DNA of 64,000 bases, from assembly GCF_056712565.1 (NCBI RefSeq), contig NZ_CM160072.1. One strand, given 5' to 3'. Shown one piece after another: positions 6,574-53,540 of this stretch. Position 1 is the first letter of the stretch. Each line of letters starts with the position of its first letter. The notes below the pieces were generated by a model. It worked only from the letters and a program-made list of their open reading frames with translations, was not told the DNA's origin and did not search any database. Made by a program: the position numbers and the translations under genes.

Positions 6574-6915
6574 ATGCGCTGTAAAACGCTGACTGCTGCA
6601 GCAGCAGTACTATTGATGTTGACCGCAGGCTGTTCCACTCTGGAGCGAGTGGTTTACCGTCCTGACATCAACCAGGGGAACTATCTGACCGCTAACGACG
6701 TATCCAAAATACGTGTTGGCATGACGCAACAACAAGTTGCGTACGCATTGGGTACACCGCTGATGTCCGATCCATTTGGTACAAATACCTGGTTCTATGT
6801 CTTCCGCCAGCAACCTGGTCATGAAGGTGTAACGCAGCAAACGCTGACGCTGACCTTTAACAGTAGCGGTGTGTTGACCAACATTGATAACAAACCTGCG
6901 CTGAGTGGTAACTAA
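6574..6915 (+). CDS. bamE: Outer membrane protein assembly factor BamE (SmpA)
   Basis: 113 aa with lipoprotein signal ([11 protein letters not shown]). Confidence 0.9.
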
Positions 6916-6940
6916 TAATAAAGTTGCTCTCAAAGACGTT

Positions 6941-6970
6941 AAAAAAGGTGCTCAATGAGCACCTTTTTTC
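6941..6970. terminator. Bidirectional rho-independent terminator between bamE and ratB
   Basis: aaaaaaggtgctcaatgagcaccttttttc: perfect hairpin flanked by A-run and T-run. Confidence 0.6.
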
Positions 6971-6976
6971 TGTCTG

Positions 6977-7264
6977 TTATTTATTCGCTGATTTTTCTGC
7001 TCGTTGCCTGCGAAGCTCTTTCGGATCGGCAATGAGAGGACGATAAATCTCCACCCGATCGCCATCATGCACAATATCGCTGAGTTTTGCCGGACGGCTG
7101 TAAATGCCGACTTTGTTTTTAGTTAAATCGATATCGGTACGCAATTCCAGCAAACCACTGGCGCGAATAGCTTCTTCAACCGTCGCGCCCTCCTGCAACG
7201 TCACGCGCTGCAGGTACTGCTTCTCAGGTAGCGCATAAGCCACCTCAACGGCAATTTTACCTGG
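6977..7264 (-). CDS. ratB: RatB (YfjF, UPF0125)
   Basis: Translation (V)[26 protein letters not shown]...; probable GTG start, the ORF track extends further upstream. Confidence 0.8.
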
Positions 7265-7733
7265 CACTGTAGACCTCTTTTGCACGAACAGTAAAAGCCT
7301 GCACCATATTAGCTGCCAGCTCTTTAAACACACGACCAAAGGCGAGTTCAATCAACTTATTGGTAAACTCAAAGTCGAGATGAAACTCAATACGGCACGC
7401 GTCCTGGCTCAACGGCGTAAACTTCCAACCGCCGATCAATTTCTTAAACGGTCCATCAACCAGACTCATGAGAATACTTTGATTACTGGTCAACTGGTTG
7501 CGGGTTGTAAACGTTTTGCTGATCCCAGCCTTAGACACATCTACCGCAGCAGTCATCTGCCCAGGAGTGGACTCCAGAATCCGACTTCCGGTACAACCCG
7601 GCAAAAACTGAGGATAAGACTGAACGTCATTCACTAACTGATACATTTGCTCCGCGCTGTAGGGCACCAGTGCGGTCCGGCTAATCTGAGGCATAACAAT
7701 TTCCATCAACAAAAATCCAACAAATAATATCAT
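7257..7733 (-). CDS. ratA: Ribosome association toxin RatA (YfjG, SRPBCC family)
   Basis: 158-aa [50 protein letters not shown]... Confidence 0.9.
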
Positions 7734-8561: not shown

Positions 8562-8924
8562 GGGGCTGATTCTGGATTCGACGGGATTTGCGAAACCCAA
8601 GGTGCATGCCGAGGGGCGGTTGGCCTCGTAAAAAGCCGCAAAAAATAGTCGCAAACGACGAAAACTACGCTTTAGCAGCTTAATAACCTGCTTAGAGCCC
8701 TCTCTCCCTAGCCTCCGCTCTTAGGACGGGGATCAAGAGAGGTCAAACCCAAAAGAGATCGCGTGGAAGCCCTGCCTGGGGTTGAAGCGTTAAAACTTAA
8801 TCAGGCTAGTTTGTTAGTGGCGTGTCCGTCCGCAGCTGGCAAGCGAATGTAAAGACTGACTAAGCATGTAGTACCGAGGATGTAGGAATTTCGGACGCGG
8901 GTTCAACTCCCGCCAGCTCCACCA
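8562..8924 (+). ncRNA. ssrA: tmRNA (SsrA, 10Sa RNA)
   Basis: Begins GGGGCTGATTCTGGATTCGACGGGATTTGCGAAACCCAAGGTGCATGCC, contains tag-peptide coding region, ends ...GGTTCAACTCCCGCCAGCTCCACCA; 363 nt. Confidence 0.95.
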
Positions 8925-9085: not shown

Positions 9086-9452
9086 TCTTTAGCCTGATTC
9101 GACACTCTCAATGCGGCCATAAACAACAACCCACTTTTCTTATACCGTAGCCTGTCCCCCTCTTCCTGCTTTCTAACCATAACAGATGTGAGCGTTTGCT
9201 ATGAGCGATATATAGTCATTCGTACCCTCCGATACTAATCATCACAGAAATTAATATATTCATTCCTTACTGAAAAGCTATGAAGTAGATATATAGGATT
9301 GGGGCGCGTATGGCACTGGACAGTTATGCATCTCCGAATATTATTCCGGAGCTAAGACAACTAGACTGGCCCCCTGAATCTCCAGACAACCAATATCACT
9401 TATTTAAGTGATAGTCTTAATACTAGTTTTTAGACTAGTCATTGGAGAGCAG

Positions 9453-9818
9453 ATGATTGATGTCTTAGGACCGGAGAAACGCAGACGGCGTACCACACAG
9501 GAAAAGATCGCAATTGTTCAGCAGAGCTTTGAACCAGGGATGACGGTCTCCCTCGTTGCCCGGCAACATGGTGTAGCAGCCAGCCAGTTATTTCTCTGGC
9601 GTAAGCAATACCAGGAAGGAAGTCTTACTGCTGTCGCCGCCGGAGAACAGGTTGTTCCTGCCTCTGAACTTGCTGCCGCCATGAAGCAGATTAAAGAACT
9701 CCAGCGCCTGCTCGGCAAGAAAACGATGGAAAATGAACTCCTCAAAGAAGCCGTTGAATATGGACGGGCAAAAAAGTGGATAGCGCACGCGCCCTTATTG
9801 CCCGGGGATGGGGAGTAA
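9453..9818 (+). CDS. insC: IS2 transposase OrfA (InsC)
   Basis: [56 protein letters not shown]... Confidence 0.85.
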
Positions 9819-10681
9819 GCTTAGTCAGCCGTTGTCTCCGGGTGTCGCGTGCGCAGTTGCACGTCATTCTCAGACGAACCGATGACTGGATGGATGGCCG
9901 CCGCAGTCGTCACACTGATGATACGGATGTGCTTCTCCGTATACACCATGTTATCGGAGAGCTGCCCACGTATGGTTATCGTCGGGTATGGGCGCTGCTT
10001 CGCAGACAGGCAGAACTTGATGGTATGCCTGCGATCAATGCCAAACGTGTTTACCGGATCATGCGCCAGAATGCGCTGTTGCTTGAGCGAAAACCTGCTG
10101 TACCGCCATCGAAACGGGCACATACAGGCAGAGTGGCTGTGAAAGAAAGTAATCAGCGATGGTGCTCTGACGGGTTCGAGTTCCGCTGTGATAACGGAGA
10201 AAAACTGCGAGTCACGTTCGCGCTGGACTGCTGTGACCGTGAGGCACTGCACTGGGCGGTCACTACGGGCGGCTTCAACAGTGAAACAGTACAGGACGTC
10301 ATGCTGGGAGCGGTGGAACGCCGCTTCGGCAACGAGCTTCCGGCGTCTCCAGTAGAGTGGCTGACGGATAATGGTTCATGCTACCGGGCTAATGAAACAC
10401 GGCAGTTTGCCCGGATGTTGGGGCTTGAACCGAAGAGCACGGCGGTGCGGAGTCCGGAGAGTAACGGCATAGCAGAGAGCTTCGTGAAAACGATAAAGCG
10501 TGACTACATCAGTGTCATGCCCAAACCAGACGGGTTAACGGCAGCAAAGAACCTTGCAGAGGCGTTCGAGCATTATAACGAATGGCATCCGCATAGTGCA
10601 CTGGGTTATCGCTCGCCACGGGAATATCTACGGCAGCAAGCCAGTAATGGGTTAAGTGATAACAGGTGTCTGGAAATATAG
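9776..10681 (+). CDS. insD: IS2 transposase OrfB (InsD), DDE integrase-like catalytic domain
   Basis: 301 aa overlapping orfA in another frame (frameshift fusion arrangement typical of IS3 family). Confidence 0.9.
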
Positions 10682-10839
10682 GGGCAAATCCAACAACCGA
10701 ATGCCGCAGCAGGTAAGATCACGCTAGGGGGGCTGGACAGAATGGCTGTTACGCCCAGTGTGAAGAAAAGAAGGCTAAGTATGGTAGAATTTCCATACGC
10801 ACAGACCTTGTTATCCGACTATACAGCCTGGAAGGCACT

Positions 10840-11628
10840 ATGACAAATCTACAACTGGAAGAAAGATTTAGGGCGCTTGAGAAAGATTACGATGCGCTCA
10901 TTTCCACAAAATATACTGCGCAGAACGTTCTCACTCACACTATGGAAACCTATGTTGATTCTGGTAAATATAAAAACTGGATCGCCAGAGTGAAAAAGTT
11001 AATAGAGGACAGCTACGGAAAAGAGTCTGATTATTACAATGACTTCAATACTGTAAACAGCAGGTGGTCTTCTAATTACAATACACTGATCAAAAGTTAT
11101 AAACCGTTGTTTGATGCGGCGAGAGATGATCTTGCGCACTCTGCTGTCAGTACTAATACTCCTCAAGAAGGTTCGCCGCTGAGCCTCGTACTTAATATTC
11201 TTAACAGGTTTCCGACCTTTGTTCGCCAGTTAAAGAGGCGGTACAACGGCCGTGCGCCGCTTGAAGTTAATGATGAGTATGACGTACAGGATTTGATTTA
11301 TGCACTGCTGACGCTTCATTTTAATGATATTAGGGCGGAAGAGTATACCCCCAGCTTTGCGGGCGCGGCCTCAAGACAGGACTTTCTTTTGAAAAAAGAG
11401 AAAATTGTGATAGAGGTGAAGAAAACCCGTGAATCTCTGGGAGCGGGTAAAGTTGGTGGAGAGTTGCTTATTGATATGGCGCGCTACCGCGCTCACCAAG
11501 ACTGCGATACGTTGATCTTGTTTGTATATGACCCGGATTGCTACATAAATAATCCTTTGGGCGTGAAAACCGATCTGGAATCTAAAGACGCGGAAGGAAA
11601 AGTGAAGGTTGTTATTGCGCAGTTCTGA
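10840..11628 (+). CDS. Hypothetical protein, helical N-terminus and possible PD-(D/E)xK nuclease-like C-terminus; defence candidate
   Basis: 262-aa ORF; C-terminal D...(D/E)xK-like motifs (DVQDLIYALL ... KEKIVIEVKKTRE); no family recognised; lies in the accessory islet. Confidence 0.5.
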   Translation: MTNLQLEERFRALEKDYDALISTKYTAQNVLTHTMETYVDSGKYKNWIARVKKLIEDSYGKESDYYNDFNTVNSRWSSNYNTLIKSYKPLFDAARDDLAHSAVSTNTPQEGSPLSLVLNILNRFPTFVRQLKRRYNGRAPLEVNDEYDVQDLIYALLTLHFNDIRAEEYTPSFAGAASRQDFLLKKEKIVIEVKKTRESLGAGKVGGELLIDMARYRAHQDCDTLILFVYDPDCYINNPLGVKTDLESKDAEGKVKVVIAQF

Positions 11629-11663
11629 CACGCTTAAGTGTCACCTTACAGGATTAGGTTTGC

Positions 11664-11709
11664 GGCCGTGCCAGCAGGACGAGCATGAAAAAGGCCGCTG
11701 GCACGGCCG
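11664..11709. terminator. Long hairpin between convergent ORFs
   Basis: cggccgtgccagc ... gctggcacggccg, 13-bp perfect inverted repeat. Confidence 0.4.
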
Positions 11710-11715
11710 GATTTG

Positions 11716-12009
11716 TCATCTTTGCCAGGTCAAATCAAAATCTACGTGAAAATCCGCAGGCTTAAGCTCGCAACTGCCACCACGCCCAATTAACGACGTT
11801 ATGTTTACAACGTTTGAACCTGTTGAGATGGCAAGTTGAGTGTCATCTGTAAACGTGATGATTAGCATTTCAGTCTGATGAACCTGTACTCCAGTTTTCT
11901 GAAAACCAATCTGGACAGATTTCACCGTTTTCCCAACCATTTCACGGGCTTGATTGATAGAGTAATTAGCTTCAACTTGTAGGTCATTCCTGAACTTGGG
12001 TAGTGTCAT
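11716..12009 (-). CDS. Small hypothetical protein (97 aa), downstream partner of the GIY-YIG gene
   Basis: ORF co-oriented with and downstream of 12220..13026; no recognisable motif. Confidence 0.45.
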   Translation of the reverse strand: MTLPKFRNDLQVEANYSINQAREMVGKTVKSVQIGFQKTGVQVHQTEMLIITFTDDTQLAISTGSNVVNITSLIGRGGSCELKPADFHVDFDLTWQR

Positions 12010-12219
12010 TTTACATCCTCTTTAGTGAAGTTTTCGCTATTTAAATCAGCAGCATTCCTTTTAAATCACTGGCATGTCAGCAGTGGATAGTCTGAGTGTA
12101 ACGTCCAGTGAGGGGAATAAATATTGGTCAGACTTTGCACAAAAGAGCCAACTATCGCGGGCTCTCTCTCATCATGTGCGAAAATTGACCACAATATGAA
12201 ATCCAGTTCCATTCCGAAA

Positions 12220-13044
<825 letters not shown>

Positions 13045-13152
13045 TCAATTGACAACTTATAATCCCTACTAGTTAGCATTATGATTTCCAGAGTGAGGAA
13101 TATAAAAATCTCTGTTTCTGGCACATAACAGCCCTTAAGATCGTAGCTCGCC

Positions 13153-13200
13153 ATCATGGGGTGTCGGGGGGCGGAGGTTCAAATCCTCTCGTGCCGACCA
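13153..13200 (+). other. Truncated tRNA 3' fragment (T-arm, acceptor, CCA), tRNA-Pro-like
   Basis: catggggtgtcggggggcggaggttcaaatcctctcgtgccgacca resembles the 3' half of tRNA-Pro as recalled; no matching 5' half upstream; followed by hairpin + T-run at 13215-13240. Confidence 0.55.
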
Positions 13201-13441
13201 AAAATCCCTTAAGAACCAGCCTATTATGGCTGGTTTTTTTATGATTGTTTTTTATGCGGAGAAATACCGGGGAATAATTGGGGTAAAACACCTTTAGGCT
13301 ATTCACTTAGCCTACCACCATCAAAATCTTTCCGAATGTATCCATCTCTTTTTTCTTATGCAGCTAAAACGAAGTCTTGATACTGTTTATTTACACAGAT
13401 AAGAATAATACTGTCTACAAACGCAGTACAAAAGAAGTGTT

Positions 13442-13620
13442 ATGCGTATTGAGATCTCCATAGCCAAAGACAAAATGACCAAATGCCAAACGGCGCTGTG
13501 GACGCGTTAAAGGAAGAATTAACCCAACACATTGGCAAGCGTTATGACGATGTGGAGATGATCGTAAAAGCCACCAGCAACGATAGTTTTTCAGTTAGAC
13601 ATACTGCAGATAAAGATTGA
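13442..13620 (+). pseudogene. DinI-like protein, frameshifted and C-terminally truncated
   Basis: Frame 1 [14 protein letters not shown] then stop; shifted frame continues [37 protein letters not shown], matching the DinI-family pattern MRIE..IAK...LP.GA.DAL..EL. Confidence 0.5.
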
Positions 13621-14044
13621 GCTAAAACTTTCGTTCAGGAAACTCTGAATGATACCTGAGAGTCTACTGAAGAGTTGTTTGTTCACTAGTTAGCACGTAG
13701 GAAATCATTCAATACTCGCACTATCGGAAGTTCACCAGCCAGTCGTAGCACGTCCTTGCAAACGACGTGCCTACGGTTTCAATCACCTCTCACCATCAAT
13801 TCTATCAATAATAATTAAACAGCGCCTAGACAAAATAAATAACAACAAGTCAACAACCTCGACAGGATGCCGATGGGATGATGAAGAGATAAGAAAGAAT
13901 AACCAGTAAAGCCCTAAAACGTCAGCGTTCAGACGCGTTTTTTACTTAATCGGTAACAAATACGTTGTATCATAGCAAAATAAAATGATTGTTCTAAATC
14001 AGATTAACTCCTCACTTTTGTACAATGTCGCTTACAGGTATACC

Positions 14045-15934
14045 ATGAAATCCGAGACGCTAACTGTCCAACAACTTTTTCAAGACCGCCGACAATACTG
14101 TGTTCCATTCTATCAACGTGCCTATGTATGGACTCAGCAAGACCAGTGGTCAGCTCTACTGGAGGATATCCTAGAGAAAGTACAATCCCGGCTCTCGGGT
14201 ACAAAACCAACTCCCCATTTCCTTGGTGCGGTTGTACTGGAACCTCAATCAAAAAAAGGATTATTAGGTGTAGATTCCATACATATTATTGATGGTCAGC
14301 AACGATTGACCACTCTTCAATATGTTCTGGCATCCATCCGATTAGCATTACGTGCTACGGATCTTTCCAGCTTAGAGGCTCTCATTTCGCCTTGCCTGAA
14401 AAACTCAAACGAAGACACAATGCGAAATAAAGAAGTAGAACGCTTCAAACTGTGGCCAACTTTTCGGGATCAAACTCATTTTATTCAAAGTTTTAATGTT
14501 GAAAATATTGACGATCTCCGGGACGTATTCTCTGATAGTTTCACGCAGCATGGTACGTTGCGTAAGCATTTTAATCACCCGCCATCACTAGAAGCATTAT
14601 GTTTTTTTACTGAAGCCTTTATAAAATGGATTAAAATAGAAAACCACTCACCACAAGAAAATGCTGTAGCTCTAATTGAGGCTGTCTTAACAGATCTGAA
14701 ACTGGTAAGCATATTTCTCGAAGCTGAAGATGATGCCCAAATAATTTTTGAAACATTAAATGGGCGAGGGGCGGAACTTCATGCTACGGATCTTATTCGC
14801 AACTATATCTTTATGTGCGCTGAGCATGAAAATATTAATGCTATTGAATTATATGAAAATGAGTGGAAGAGCTTTGAAGATAAATACTGGTCGGAAAAAC
14901 AACGCCGTGGACGTATTAATAAACCACGCATGGAGTGGCTAGTACATGCGACATTGCAATCAGAAAGGCAACGTGAAATTGATCTGTCTCGCCTTTACAA
15001 TGAGTATCGTGATTATGTAAGTAAGGACTTGTCTTCACAACGAGCAGATCTGCAAGTAAAGCGCCTCAAACAATATGCATCACAATATAAAGAATTGGTT
15101 GATGGTTTTGGCACAACCCCCATCTCACACTTTGGATATCGCATCGCAGACTATGATGTGACGACACTTTATCCGCTTGCTTTGTTCATTTCGATAGCTA
15201 ACATCGCTGATGATGAGAAAGCAGCCATGTATAATGATCTTGTCTCCTACGTAGTACGAAGAGCCGTATGTGGCCTGACGCCAAAGAATTACAACAATGT
15301 ATTTATGAATGTATTGCGGCACTTGGCTAAAACGGAAATTTCCAGTGTTGAGTTACGTAATATCCTCAATAACTTAAATGGCGAAGCCTCACGTTGGCCT
15401 GGTGACTCAGAATTTCTCAACGCTTGCATCAATGCTCCACTTTATCCTGGCAGGCTCGACGCACCGAAAATGCGCTCAATGTTAACGGAACTTGAAAGAG
15501 AACTTTGTCGCCAAGTAAAGACAGAAAAGCCTGATGTTCCAAATCTTTCTAATCTCGATATCGATCATCTTATGCCTCAAAGTTGGTATTCCTGTTGGCC
15601 TCTCGAAAATGGTCGTATGGTGACAAATTCAGATGCTACGGTATTGAACCAAATTGTTCTGTCTGGAACCGATCTTACCCCTGAACAGCTACTGGTAAGG
15701 AAACGGCAACAAGCGATATCTACTTTGGGAAATCTAACTTTGCTTAACCTTAGCGTAAACCGTTCTGTTCAGAATGCTGTATTTCTGAAAAAACGTGATG
15801 CTCTCATCGTCCACACCAATCTACGACTGAACATTCCACTTATAGTTAAGGATAAATGGGATGAGGATGAAATCCTGGAGCGGGGTAAAAAGTTGGGGGA
15901 AATTGCATTGAAAGTATGGCCAAAACACGATTAA
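14045..15934 (+). CDS. Type IV restriction endonuclease, GmrSD-like (N-terminal DUF262/ParB-like, C-terminal DUF1524/HNH-like)
   Basis: N-terminal DGQQRLTTL motif; C-terminal DIDHLMPQSW...N motif; start taken at MKSETLTVQQLF; AT-rich gene. Confidence 0.75.
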   Translation: MKSETLTVQQLFQDRRQYCVPFYQRAYVWTQQDQWSALLEDILEKVQSRLSGTKPTPHFLGAVVLEPQSKKGLLGVDSIHIIDGQQRLTTLQYVLASIRLALRATDLSSLEALISPCLKNSNEDTMRNKEVERFKLWPTFRDQTHFIQSFNVENIDDLRDVFSDSFTQHGTLRKHFNHPPSLEALCFFTEAFIKWIKIENHSPQENAVALIEAVLTDLKLVSIFLEAEDDAQIIFETLNGRGAELHATDLIRNYIFMCAEHENINAIELYENEWKSFEDKYWSEKQRRGRINKPRMEWLVHATLQSERQREIDLSRLYNEYRDYVSKDLSSQRADLQVKRLKQYASQYKELVDGFGTTPISHFGYRIADYDVTTLYPLALFISIANIADDEKAAMYNDLVSYVVRRAVCGLTPKNYNNVFMNVLRHLAKTEISSVELRNILNNLNGEASRWPGDSEFLNACINAPLYPGRLDAPKMRSMLTELERELCRQVKTEKPDVPNLSNLDIDHLMPQSWYSCWPLENGRMVTNSDATVLNQIVLSGTDLTPEQLLVRKRQQAISTLGNLTLLNLSVNRSVQNAVFLKKRDALIVHTNLRLNIPLIVKDKWDEDEILERGKKLGEIALKVWPKHD

Positions 15935-16029
15935 TGCAATTAATAAAATGATTATAGTGGCCTTACATTAGTAAGGCCGCTACTCACTATTAAATACTTT
16001 AATTTGCATCAAGAACAGCAGTGTCAGCC

Positions 16030-16158
16030 CTAGGTCTCGGACTTTGTACCGCTTATCTTGTCTTCAAAAATCAGCTCGCATCCTGCACAGTTCAGCGCAT
16101 TACGTTGTAGATCTGTGTTCTGGTCATTTGTTGACACACGTACATAGCCAATAAGCAT
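16030..16158 (-). pseudogene. DNA invertase (Pin/Gin/Hin family) truncated to an N-terminal ~41-codon fragment
   Basis: Reverse-strand translation MLIGYVRVSTNDQNTDLQRNALNCAGCELIFEDKISGTKSET then stop; N-terminus of serine invertases including the catalytic-Ser region. Confidence 0.75.
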
Positions 16159-16184: not shown

Positions 16185-16679
16185 ATGATGCCATTTGCTC
16201 GTTATTTCTGCATTTTCATAAACGTTGGTTTGGGAGAAGGCTCTGCATTACCTGTTGGTGTGCCTGTTCCATGGCCTTCAGCCACACCGCCAACAGGCTG
16301 GCTGAAATGCAACGGTGCGGCTTTTTCTGCTGAAGAATACCCGGAACTGGCAAAGGCTTATCCGACAAATAAATTGCCTGATTTACGTGGTGAGTTTATT
16401 CGTGGCTGGGATGATGGGCGCGGCGTTGATTCAAGGCGTGCGGTGCTGTCAACACAAGAGCCAACTGTAGGTACTTTTTATGTGGAGCTAGCTATCATCT
16501 CGGGAACTTTGAGCGGCTCAGGTGCTAAATTTACCGATTCAGTAGGGATTGGATCAACCAGTAGTAACATTACCGTTAGCAACGGTAATGACCAGTCCGT
16601 GTCGGGTACAGTGGCCGTTAACCCCGTCGATACCCGTCCACGCAACATTGCATTTAACTATATCGTGAGAGCAGCATAA
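16185..16679 (+). CDS. Alternative tail-fibre C-terminal cassette (Sv'-like), in the unexpressed orientation
   Basis: Contains phage tail-collar-like motif VPVPWPSATPPTGWLKCNGAAFSAEEYPELAKAYP; shares the LGLGE crossover sequence with the expressed tail-fibre gene. Confidence 0.7.
   Translation: MMPFARYFCIFINVGLGEGSALPVGVPVPWPSATPPTGWLKCNGAAFSAEEYPELAKAYPTNKLPDLRGEFIRGWDDGRGVDSRRAVLSTQEPTVGTFYVELAIISGTLSGSGAKFTDSVGIGSTSSNITVSNGNDQSVSGTVAVNPVDTRPRNIAFNYIVRAA
16226..16240. repeat. Left inverted repeat / crossover site of the invertible tail-fibre segment
   Basis: ttggtttgggagaag is the exact reverse complement of 18141..18155. Confidence 0.65.
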
Positions 16680-17281
16680 TGGATAAAGCAATATTAAATA
16701 GTGGACTTGTTGCTACAAAGGCAGGGGATATTACCGTTTATAACTATGATGGTGAAACTCGGGAATATATTTCCACTTCAAGTGAATATCTTGCCGTTGG
16801 TGTTGGTATCCCGGCATATTCCTGTCTGGATGCACCAGGTATACATAAGGCGGGTTATGCTATCTGTCGTTCTGTGAATTTAAATTCATGGGAATATGTG
16901 CCAGACCATCGCGGTGAAATCGTCTATAACACCGAAACGGGAGAATCAAAACAAATCACAGCACCGGGTGATTACCCCGAAAATACAACCACTATTGCCC
17001 CATTAACGCCATACGATAAATGGGATGGTGAGAAATGGGTGACCGATACTGAGGCACAGCATAGCGCCGCAGTAGACGCGGCAGAAGCACAGCGTCAGTC
17101 ACTGATTGATGCTGCAATGGCTTCCATCGGTCTGATTCAGCTGAAATTACAGGCCGGACGGAAGCTGATGCAGGCAGAAACAACCCGGCTTAACGCTGTG
17201 CTGGATTACATTGACGCGGTGACGGCAACAAATACCAGCACAGCGCCGGATGTCATCTGGCCTGAACTGCCGGAGGCGTAG
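16679..17281 (+). CDS. Tail fibre assembly protein (alternative Tfa, partner of the Sv'-like cassette)
   Basis: 200 aa; C-terminal LDYIDAVTATNTSTAPDVIWPELPE typical of Tfa chaperones; convergent with and overlapping the other tfa. Confidence 0.75.
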   Translation: MDKAILNSGLVATKAGDITVYNYDGETREYISTSSEYLAVGVGIPAYSCLDAPGIHKAGYAICRSVNLNSWEYVPDHRGEIVYNTETGESKQITAPGDYPENTTTIAPLTPYDKWDGEKWVTDTEAQHSAAVDAAEAQRQSLIDAAMASIGLIQLKLQAGRKLMQAETTRLNAVLDYIDAVTATNTSTAPDVIWPELPEA

Positions 17282-17696
17282 GCCATTCAATATCTGGCGC
17301 ACAGGAAGTATCGACCAGTTCCAGTGCGTCCAGATAATCCAGCCACGAATTATATTGCGCCAGTTCCTCGCCTTTCAGACGACCAATAGCAGCTTTGCCA
17401 GGCCACTGATGGGTATTGATGTAGGTATTGACTTCTGAAACCAAAGATATTTTTTTCATTTCAGCCGTCAACACCTCATCCTCTTTTGAAGGGGGTGGGG
17501 AATTAATCCATACTGGCCGTCCTGAACTGTCAGCGCCAATTTCTTTCCCTTCTGGATGCAGACCAAGAAATTGCTCATATGTTTCTCTGGTAATTTCAAT
17601 AACATCATCAGGAAGCGTTCCCGCATCCTCATATTCTGGAAACAATTCTTGCAGATAAAAACTTTTACTTCCGGGTGAAAAGAATACTGAGTTCAT
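17253..17696 (-). CDS. Tail fibre assembly protein (Tfa)
   Basis: 147 aa, C-terminal LDYLDALELVDTSCAPDIEWPTPP motif. Confidence 0.75.
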   Translation of the reverse strand: MNSVFFSPGSKSFYLQELFPEYEDAGTLPDDVIEITRETYEQFLGLHPEGKEIGADSSGRPVWINSPPPSKEDEVLTAEMKKISLVSEVNTYINTHQWPGKAAIGRLKGEELAQYNSWLDYLDALELVDTSCAPDIEWPTPPAVQAR

Positions 17697-17698
17697 TA

Positions 17699-18442
17699 TT
17701 ACCGTCCAATGATTAACGCTGAGACGCTGGTATCTGAAGGAAAGGCTGCATTCAGTGGTTTGTCGACTTTGAACACAATCGTATTATTCCCCCTGACAGC
17801 GGCAAAAGAACAAACCGCCGTCGCGTATGAACCTGTAATATTACTGGATACACCACCATAAGCTGTTGTTGATACCAGAGGGATAACGCCCAGCACCTTA
17901 TTAGGAAATACAAAGGGCAATGTGGCTGTGGCAATATAAGACTTATTAGAACCTGTGATGGCATAAGCATTATCAGTCATTCCATTCATCGCCACTGGGC
18001 CGCTTATACTTACAGTAACCATCTGAATGATTAGCCCGTCAGGTTGACGAATCACAAAATTTCCATTGCCACCAGTAACCGTCCAGAAAGACATATCAGG
18101 GATTTGGTTTTCCCCGTTGCCCACATTCCGTTTTGCCGCTTCTCCCAAACCAAGGTTTTCGAGAGCCGTTTTCACCGTGCCGTCCGATTTGATATCGCTA
18201 AACGGATTCTTGCGGCTTAACAGCAGCGCACGAAGCGCGGTAAGCAGCTGGTCGTGCCGCGCCTTCTCCAGACTGGCACCGGATGCCTCCACCACGCTGC
18301 AGAGTTCTTCCTGCAACATGTCAAAGTAGTCATCATCCAGATCGGTGGCAGGCGTGCCTGTCTGGGGGTTACCACGGGTAAAACCGTTCTTACCCGCGCC
18401 GAACTTATCCTTCTGCGCGGTTTTCGTGTCTATACGATGCAT
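17699..18442 (-). CDS. Tail fibre protein (constant N-terminus + currently expressed variable C-terminus)
   Basis: 247 aa [29 protein letters not shown]...; crossover LGLGE inside the gene; e14 StfP-like. Confidence 0.75.
18141..18155. repeat. Right inverted repeat / crossover site of the invertible tail-fibre segment
   Basis: cttctcccaaaccaa, reverse complement of 16226..16240. Confidence 0.65.
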
Positions 18443-53200: not shown

Positions 53201-53356
53201 AGCGATGTCATTCTTATACGATGGATTTATAGATTATCTACTATTCATAGTTGGTTATGAAGACTGGGATATAACAGTAAAAGATACGTGTAAGATCCGC
53301 AAGATAGTTAATGTCGAAAAAATCATTAATTACATCAAGTTAGTGATATTTGGACT

Positions 53357-53540
53357 CGGGTTCAACTCCCGCCAGCCAATCATGATTGGACGGTGTAAGG
53401 ACTACACCAACAAAAACAGGAAGTTATAAGTCTCAGCAGGACACCGACCAGACGGTGAGGAGACAAAAAAGGATACGCAACGGAGTCGCGACTCCCTATG
53501 ACATTAAAGCCCGCTGATGCGGGCTTTTTTATTGGTCCTG
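53357..53540 (+). repeat. attR: second copy of the ssrA 3' core plus ~170 bp flanking sequence, with terminator
   Basis: cgggttcaactcccgccagc followed by sequence ~90% identical to 8918-9085 (5-bp tccac indel) and hairpin aaagcccgctgatgcgggctttttt. Confidence 0.7.

Follow-up and report, generated by a model that had tools for sequence, protein, structure and literature searches.

A GmrSD restriction gene joined to a Pin invertase remnant beside an invertible tail-fibre segment in an e14-type prophage

This study concerns a gene for a GmrSD-type restriction enzyme, the remnant of a Pin invertase gene that it faces, and the invertible tail-fibre segment beyond, all in the left arm of a prophage on contig NZ_CM160072.1 (assembly GCF_056712565.1). 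The window, the whole stretch of DNA that was analysed, is 64,000 nucleotides (nt; 64 kb) long, and all positions refer to it. The prophage is integrated at ssrA, the transfer-messenger RNA (tmRNA) gene at 8562-8924, and a 90%-identical copy of the ssrA 3′ end at 53349-53530 forms the attachment (att) repeat. Its annotation includes complete head, tail, lysis and packaging modules. Segments of the cryptic prophage e14 match it at 95-98% identity, which makes "e14-type" a fair description; e14 itself looks like a deleted relative. This region is matched at 100% identity in E. coli IHE3034, APEC O1, UTI89 and many further genomes, which, judging by the strain names, we take to be of the sequence type 95 (ST95) lineage.

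The restriction gene, the pin remnant and the invertible segment

The main features of the locus, with the evidence for each, are as follows.

13701..14044, plus strand: upstream part of the shared GmrSD block (start of homology against the carriers L004 and L005, introduced below)
14045..15934, plus strand: gmrSD, single-chain type IV modification-dependent restriction endonuclease, 629 amino acids (aa) (open reading frame (ORF), Pfam, PADLOC, identity to UTI89)
15935..16036, no strand: 3′ spacer of the GmrSD block and junction zone (direct reading; alignments to e14 and six intact pinE alleles)
16030..16158, minus strand: remnant of the Pin invertase, with 41 codons of PinE followed by a foreign one and a stop (ORF, PinE alignment, RefSeq pseudogene annotation)
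16213..16238, no strand: pin-proximal 26-bp crossover site (pix), TTTTCATAAACG-TT-GGTTTGGGAGAA (inverted repeat, breakpoint against UTI89)
16227..18151, no strand: invertible tail-fibre segment of ~1.93 kb (ORFs, RefSeq annotation, inversion in UTI89)
16240-16679 and 16679-17281, plus strand, 17253-17696 and 17699-18151, minus strand: ORFs of the segment
17699..18442, minus strand: tail-fibre gene expressed in the window orientation, 247 aa (ORF; IHE3034 annotation)
18140..18165, no strand: distal crossover site within the tail-fibre gene, TTCTCCCAAACC-AA-GGTTT... (inverted repeat, breakpoint against UTI89)

The ORF of gmrSD is uninterrupted over 629 codons, one fewer than the 630 aa given by the sequence-only reading of this DNA. 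A Pfam search of its product finds GmrSD_N (PF03235) at residues 8-256 (E = 6.8e-34) and GmrSD_C (PF07510) at residues 451-619 (E = 9.4e-20), and the PADLOC model mREase_IV PDLC03655 is matched from end to end (1-629/629, 1415 bits). The N-terminal DUF262/GmrSD_N domain contains the DGQQR motif that marks the family, at residues 83-87, and the C-terminal DUF1524/GmrSD_C domain, of the His-Me (HNH) type, contains its (D/E)H...N motif as D507-H508...N522. Domains and motifs agree with the proposal of a type IV, GmrSD-like enzyme in the slot that holds mcrA in e14. No close homologue was found in the collection of sequenced phages, where the best identity was ~25%, and the sole match of a PDB sequence search was a distant DUF262 protein, 9jfl. 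The promoter region of gmrSD presumably lies within the 13701..14044 stretch of the shared block.

The enzyme itself has been studied before. The window gmrSD is 100% identical in DNA to the copy in UTI89, where the protein has the accession WP_000834402.1, and its protein shares 93% aa identity (586/629) with the Eco94-type allele of strain 1190 (WP_000834396.1). We take it to be UTI89_C2960, the published "UT" enzyme, because WP_000834402.1 is encoded at ~2.90 Mb by the single gmrSD copy of UTI89 and shows the matching 93% identity to Eco94GmrSD; tag and accession are linked by this position, single copy and identity. In the account of He et al. 2015 (PMC4437046), UTI89_C2960 is a fused, single-chain GmrSD and shares 93% identity with Eco94GmrSD, itself 629 aa long. 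It is borne by a prophage next to tail-fibre genes, restricts T2, T6 and other T-even-like phages, restricts neither T4 nor T4 ip1-, and is insensitive to the T4 inhibitor IPI* (PMC4437046). Eco94GmrSD cleaves DNA with hydroxymethylcytosine (hmC) or glucosyl-hmC (ghmC) in vitro, and the cleavage is abolished by D507A, H508A and N522A (PMC4437046). The neighbourhood had also been noted in print, since a passage in Machnicka et al. places tail-fibre assembly and invertase ORFs on the flanks of the CT596 locus (PMC4619093, citing Bair & Black 2007). The gene is thus not new: it is the published UT GmrSD, and what the sequence-only reading observed is correct and largely known. The assay it proposed, against T4 and modified DNA, has in essence already been done on the identical UT enzyme (PMC4437046).

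Comparison with the known enzymes makes the relation clear. EcoUTI89GmrSD, the UT enzyme, has the same DNA, protein, prophage and position beside the tail-fibre genes; the gene does not differ at all. What sets the window strain apart from UTI89 is an additional IS2 (9362-10692) and a tail-fibre segment that points the other way. Eco94GmrSD (ECSTEC94C_1402) and EcoCT596GmrSD are likewise single-chain GmrSD proteins of 629 aa with the same D507-H508-N522, and both lie in prophages directly after tail-fibre genes (PMC4437046). The Eco94-type allele differs from the window protein by 43 substitutions, mostly in residues 1-150. The Eco94 and CT enzymes are blocked by IPI* of T4, whereas UT is insensitive to IPI* and yet does not restrict T4 (PMC4437046). 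By its identity with the UT enzyme, and on the strength of that literature, the window protein is predicted to show NTP-stimulated, hmC/ghmC-dependent cleavage and T-even restriction. Through its ParB-like, NTP-binding DUF262 N-domain and DUF1524 HNH C-domain it would, as is established for the family, cut hmC- or glucosyl-hmC-containing DNA of entering phages and so protect the lysogen against T-even phages.

The aa differences between GmrSD alleles concentrate in the N-terminal 150 residues (26/43 against strain 1190, 25/41 against TUM17668), and the HNH part is nearly invariant across the alleles compared (L004, L005 and L006). Such clustering fits diversification of the part of GmrSD that would meet phage inhibitors or substrates. 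It also bears on whether the window gene is a decaying passenger with no current role in defence. Insertion sequence (IS) elements do break gmrSD in close relatives, IS3 in MS20654 and IS66 in APEC IMT5155, with an IS5 nearby, within the gmrSD region, in GN05064, and high-level GmrSD expression is toxic to recA-deficient hosts (PMC4437046). Nevertheless, the window ORF is intact with all catalytic motifs present, the allele is identical to one that restricts T-even phages (PMC4437046), the gene is carried by 305 genomes and conserved in 299 genomes at ≥80% coverage, and the N-terminal excess of differences is what an arms race would be expected to produce. We consider decay quite improbable.

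Next to gmrSD, and convergent with it, lies what is left of pin; in e14, mcrA is co-directional with pin. On the minus strand, 16158..16030 reads MLIGYVRVSTNDQNTDLQRNALNCAGCELIFEDKISGTKSE followed by T and a stop. The 41 PinE codons that remain, of 184, lack most of the catalytic domain and the whole of the DNA-binding domain, far short of a full-length serine recombinase (~185-190 aa, a catalytic domain and a C-terminal helix-turn-helix). RefSeq labels the same stretch in IHE3034 and UTI89 as "recombinase family protein, incomplete, missing C-terminus". A truncation of the invertase to ~41 codons had been claimed from the sequence, with an intact invertase elsewhere in the element named as what would refute the claim. 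The truncation holds, and in a tblastn search with PinE the stub is the only match in the 64-kb window, with no second invertase.

Alignment of the remnant to e14 and related prophages, as had been suggested, maps the junction. Remnant nt 1-122 (16158-16037) are 100% identical to the intact pinE alleles of four other E. coli prophages; against e14 pinE the identity is 94.7% over a wider aligned stretch. Strong pin identity stops at 16037, and the next ~30 nt, to ~16005, are ~60% similar (18/30) before similarity falls to background. This zone, ~16005-16036, retains a patchy ~60% similarity to pin codons 42-52. The earlier placing of the junction near 16030 is therefore right within ~30 nt. Both the window and strain YF-1 lack one nucleotide directly behind ...TCCGAGA, and this deletion relative to other carriers produces the TAG at 16030-16032. 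The remnants of TUM17668 and of strain 1190 stay open for ~20 further codons, which are not Pin-like. The 3′ spacer further contains a GC-rich hairpin, GGCCTTAC...GTAAGGCC, at ~15959-15980.

The junction shared among prophages and the slot between pin and att

Three further carriers were fetched for alignment: YF-1 (L004), TUM17668 (L005) and strain 1190 (L006), with gmrSD 96.7%, 93.6% and 93.4% identical to that of the window. Their contexts differ. In YF-1 the block lies beside paoD/ydfV; in TUM17668 a retron-Ec67 gene and an integrase adjoin and the baseplate module is different; in strain 1190 the block is at icd, the e14 site. Homology of the block to the window starts at 13701 in YF-1 and TUM17668 (~340 nt upstream of the gene) and at 13834 in strain 1190 (~210 nt). 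The pin breakpoint is base-for-base the same in all carriers aligned (four, 90-100% identical). Searched with 166 nt from across the junction, 303 complete E. coli genomes give matches at ≥80% coverage, against 305 that carry the gene. Counting the window prophage at ssrA, the junction is thus seen in at least four contexts: ssrA, paoD/ydfV, retron-Ec67/int with a different baseplate, and icd. The same breakpoint recurs in four contexts and 303 genomes, which is most simply read as one fusion in an ancestor and subsequent spread. GmrSD and the pin stub move together as one block among prophages whose integration sites differ.

A deletion/insertion in the window prophage itself, by which GmrSD replaced the 3′ part of pin and an mcrA-like gene, had been envisaged by the sequence-only reading. 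In its favour, the layout mirrors that of e14 and homology to pinE ends abruptly at 16037. However, the junction is identical, including the ~30-nt patchy zone, in carriers whose GmrSD differs by up to 7% and which lie in four contexts, and its presence in 303 genomes makes the event older than the lineage of the window prophage. A local origin is therefore very unlikely. Cargo replacement as such does occur. Strain 1190 can be aligned with K-12 along the chromosome, across icdC and as far as the attR boundary of e14, and then again from pin nt ~136-137; between these points 1.6 kb of e14 (the 3′ part of pin and mcrA, up to attR) is replaced by 2.8 kb with GmrSD. By this alignment, one cassette has truly been exchanged for another in strain 1190, at the very place where e14 integrates. 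The earlier interpretation was right in outline, then, and wrong in seeing a local event and a hotspot for type IV genes only.

Taken together, we put the probability at roughly 0.85 that the known GmrSD of the UTI89 lineage lies here in the cargo next to att of an e14/SfII-like myovirus prophage, which looks intact and is integrated at ssrA, and that it belongs to a block that was fused to pin in an ancestor and then spread. An old illegitimate recombination would have fused the ~2.3-kb block with gmrSD to pin codon ~41-52, deleting the remainder of pin and whatever cargo lay beyond. The fused block, GmrSD with the pin stub, would then have spread between related prophages, the likely route being homologous recombination anchored in the conserved pin 5′ end/tail-fibre region and in the att end. 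By the same route mcrA, PD-T4-3 and other cargo would alternate in the slot.

The e14 order on which the sequence-only reading drew, stfE-pinE-mcrA-attR(icdC), is correct. The order baseplate J, ymfQ, tail fibre, tfa, tfa′, fibre′, pin, cargo, att is found in the IHE3034 annotation and in seven comparison loci. With the pinE-mcrA module of e14 in K-12 the window shares the prophage family, the crossover repeats, a type IV HNH nuclease as cargo and the order ymfQ, stf, tfa, tfa′, stf′, pin, cargo, att. The two differ in that e14 has an intact pinE and a co-directional mcrA at icd, and the window a pin cut at codon 41 and an unrelated, convergent GmrSD at ssrA. The following cargo was seen in the slot of other prophages.

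K-12 and 00-3076: mcrA after intact pinE
FY10, O157:H7 F8952 and 1604D011: PD-T4-3-type GIY-YIG gene after intact pinE (PADLOC, E ~1e-140)
ECONIH2, L010:5217-5864, minus strand: 215-aa ORF after intact pinE (no Pfam, PADLOC or NCBIfam match)
EC11, L011:5512-6216 and 6578-7357, plus strand: 234-aa DUF4145 gene (RefSeq) and 259-aa ORF after intact pinE (no PADLOC, Pfam or NCBIfam match)
MS20658, L015:5402-6247, minus strand: 281-aa ORF in a slot with a clipped pin (no Pfam, PADLOC or NCBIfam match)

The pin-proximal site had been put forward as a swap hotspot for type IV restriction genes. The hotspot stands; its cargo is general (mcrA, PD-T4-3, DUF4145 and unannotated ORFs) and not specific to type IV. 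NCBIfam gave zero matches for any of the cargo proteins examined. Truncation of pin through a cargo replacement has also happened a second time, independently: MS20658 and ECONIH2 share the yfhH site and backbone, pin homology in MS20658 ends at nt ~261 (L015:5083-5350), and a different 1.2-kb insert with the 281-aa ORF replaces the 3′ part of pin and the 215-aa gene of ECONIH2. P2-like prophages have no equivalent slot, since their tail sheath gene comes straight after the invertase gene.

Hotspots of temperate phages such as P2 reportedly hold defence genes, as in work of Rousset et al. from 2022. The likeness is that of a fixed spot in a conserved phage backbone with alternating anti-phage genes; the window differs from the P2-type hotspots in its e14/SfII-like backbone and in the position between pin and att. 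A limited literature search found no paper describing the pin-to-att slot as a hotspot. In e14-like prophages, anti-phage genes have been exchanged repeatedly at this slot, which could be mined for new ones; three unannotated cargo ORFs have already been seen. By their position, the unannotated ORFs of 215, 281 and 234 + 259 aa are candidate anti-phage genes.

The orphan tail-fibre switch

The invertible segment provides two C-termini between which the fibre can alternate, along with two genes for tail-fibre assembly, and the expressed gene at 17699..18442 consists of the constant N-terminal part and the variable part currently joined to it. As in Pin-type segments, inverted 26-bp crossover sites lie on both sides. 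The arms of the inverted repeat, 16220-16239 and 18139-18158 (20 bp), are complementary at 19/20 positions, and the core of the repeat is the same as in the P-segment repeats of e14 (PMC12529663).

Between the window and UTI89, 16220-18158 (1.94 kb) is inverted at 99.9% identity and both flanks are 100% identical. The breakpoints fall in the 20-bp inverted repeat, where the alignments overlap. The tail-fibre protein changes with the orientation, from WP_000554664.1 (IHE3034) to WP_000554665.1 (UTI89), which has a different C-terminus. The window orientation was found in 22 genomes at ≥99.8% identity (67 loci were counted when other GmrSD lineages are included) and the UTI89 orientation in ~79. 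Both orientations occur within O18:K1:H7, with IHE3034 and PMV-1 as in the window and UTI89 and NU14 inverted, and within O1:K1:H7, with APEC O1 as in the window and DSM 30083 as in UTI89. Since all these loci carry the truncated pin, at least one inversion, and probably several, would have followed the loss of pin. The stub of 42 residues cannot catalyse inversion. The new point of this study is that the tail-fibre segment flipped after pin was lost, presumably by means of an invertase acting in trans. A tail-fibre switch can persist and flip without its own invertase.

In its 26-bp inverted crossover sites around a tail-fibre segment, in the occurrence of both orientations and in the start of the invertase gene 67 nt from the proximal site, the locus resembles the Hin/Gin/Cin/Pin systems. 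Unlike them, the window lacks the invertase, and the segment is an orphan substrate dependent on a recombinase encoded elsewhere. In the Hin system, a 65-bp Fis-dependent enhancer lies within the invertase gene, ~100 bp from hixL (PMC3798978). The pin stub spans 67-188 nt from the centre of pix, and by position alone a Fis-dependent recombinational enhancer would be retained in it. In the fusion proposed above, the deletion would have spared both 26-bp crossover sites and, again by position, the enhancer in the 5′ end of pin; the segment would stay invertible by a Pin-family invertase supplied in trans and would have flipped since the truncation. Such a supply has a precedent in PinQ and PinR, which invert the P segment of e14 with only 38% identity to PinE (PMC12529663).

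Some results weigh against the fusion-and-spread account or its parts. The stub is 92-96% identical between lineages and the neighbouring block 90-93%, which gives no clearer sign of constraint on the stub. A scan for promoters and terminators around gmrSD gave scores no better than shuffled sequence. Carrier chromosomes were searched for an invertase acting in trans with chimeric blastn queries that joined the 3′ end of GmrSD to the 3′ part of pinE or to pinQ; in many ST95-type chromosomes blastn detected neither a further pinE-like 3′ region nor a gene like pinQ, for example in DSM 30083, ZJ3920, ExPEC XM, SF-166, PMV-1 and GN06489, and the flips could be few and old. Both orientations occur among the chromosomes with no pinE-/pinQ-like match by blastn, and IHE3034, UTI89 and NU14 have one extra pinE-like place each. 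The catalyst of the flips may have been a divergent or plasmid-borne invertase or a transient donor (an infecting or since-lost phage), or the flips may be rare, old events.

These data give some room to the alternative that the two orientations reflect regions imported from differing donors, one or two ancient flips, or RecA recombination, rather than inversion after the loss of pin. Besides the many carriers with no detectable pinE-/pinQ-like gene, the minority share of the window orientation (22 vs ~79), which includes runs of related isolates such as the N-series, points this way. On the other side, flanks and segment interior are 100% identical between orientations, the breakpoints lie exactly in the 20-bp pix repeats, every carrier shares the truncation and hence any flip came later, and both orientations occur inside O18:K1:H7 and inside O1:K1:H7. 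Repeats of 20 bp are too short for efficient RecA recombination. We regard this alternative as unlikely, and inversion in trans after the loss of pin as the better account.

It can be proposed tentatively, as a possibility somewhat less likely than not, that the stub keeps both the crossover site and the enhancer of an orphan switch flipped by the invertases of other prophages, plasmids or infecting phages, and that the pin 5′ end anchors the exchange of anti-phage cassettes: GmrSD, mcrA, PD-T4-3 and at least three uncharacterised ORFs (215, 234/259 and 281 aa). If so, the uncharacterised ORFs of the slot would be new defence genes. The orphan switch bears on the control of prophage host range by recombinases encoded elsewhere and, following the work on PinQ, on the control of adsorption blocking by such recombinases. 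What deserves further study at this locus is the orphan invertible segment, along with the cargo slot and the unannotated ORFs in it.

Possible old attachment sites and further cargo of the left arm

Upstream of the GmrSD block lie several minor features.

10840-11628, plus strand: 262-aa protein whose C-terminal part matches PADLOC Aga_Helical-REase (E = 1e-26)
11716-12009, minus strand: 97-aa ORF with no match
12220-12993, minus strand: full-length PD-T4-3 GIY-YIG homologue (PADLOC, E = 8.6e-137)
13142..13242, plus strand: relic of tRNA-Pro(GGG) proL, from nt 20 to the 3′ end, with the downstream terminator (local alignment to K-12 proL)
13443..13660, plus strand: DinI-like pseudogene with a frameshift and an internal stop (RefSeq annotation, identical IHE3034/UTI89 sequence)

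The tRNA-like stretch at ~13150-13200 was considered as the end of the prophage and rejected, since it is the proL relic inside the element and the att pair is 8562-8924/53349-53530. In YF-1 and TUM17668, degenerate copies of proL precede the GmrSD block by 32 nt, and at the equivalent place strain 1190 has a stretch like the ssrA att (73% to window 53358-53470). These proL and ssrA-att relics resemble old attachment sites that have moved together with the cargo, whose region the proL relic of the window borders. The DinI-like pseudogene sits between the proL relic and the GmrSD block and is absent in YF-1 and TUM17668.

Just downstream of ssrA, an IS2-type insertion of 1.33 kb occupies 9362-10692; its two ORFs, 9408-9818 and 9776-10681, are InsC/InsD-like. 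UTI89 and IHE3034 lack the insertion but otherwise match this part of the window at 100% identity, and its junction shows a duplication of a few bases. More cargo of the defence type, the three genes at 10840-12993 listed above, lies in the interval from ssrA to the proL relic. The PD-T4-3 family of the 12220-12993 gene is the same that fills the pin-proximal slot in other prophages.

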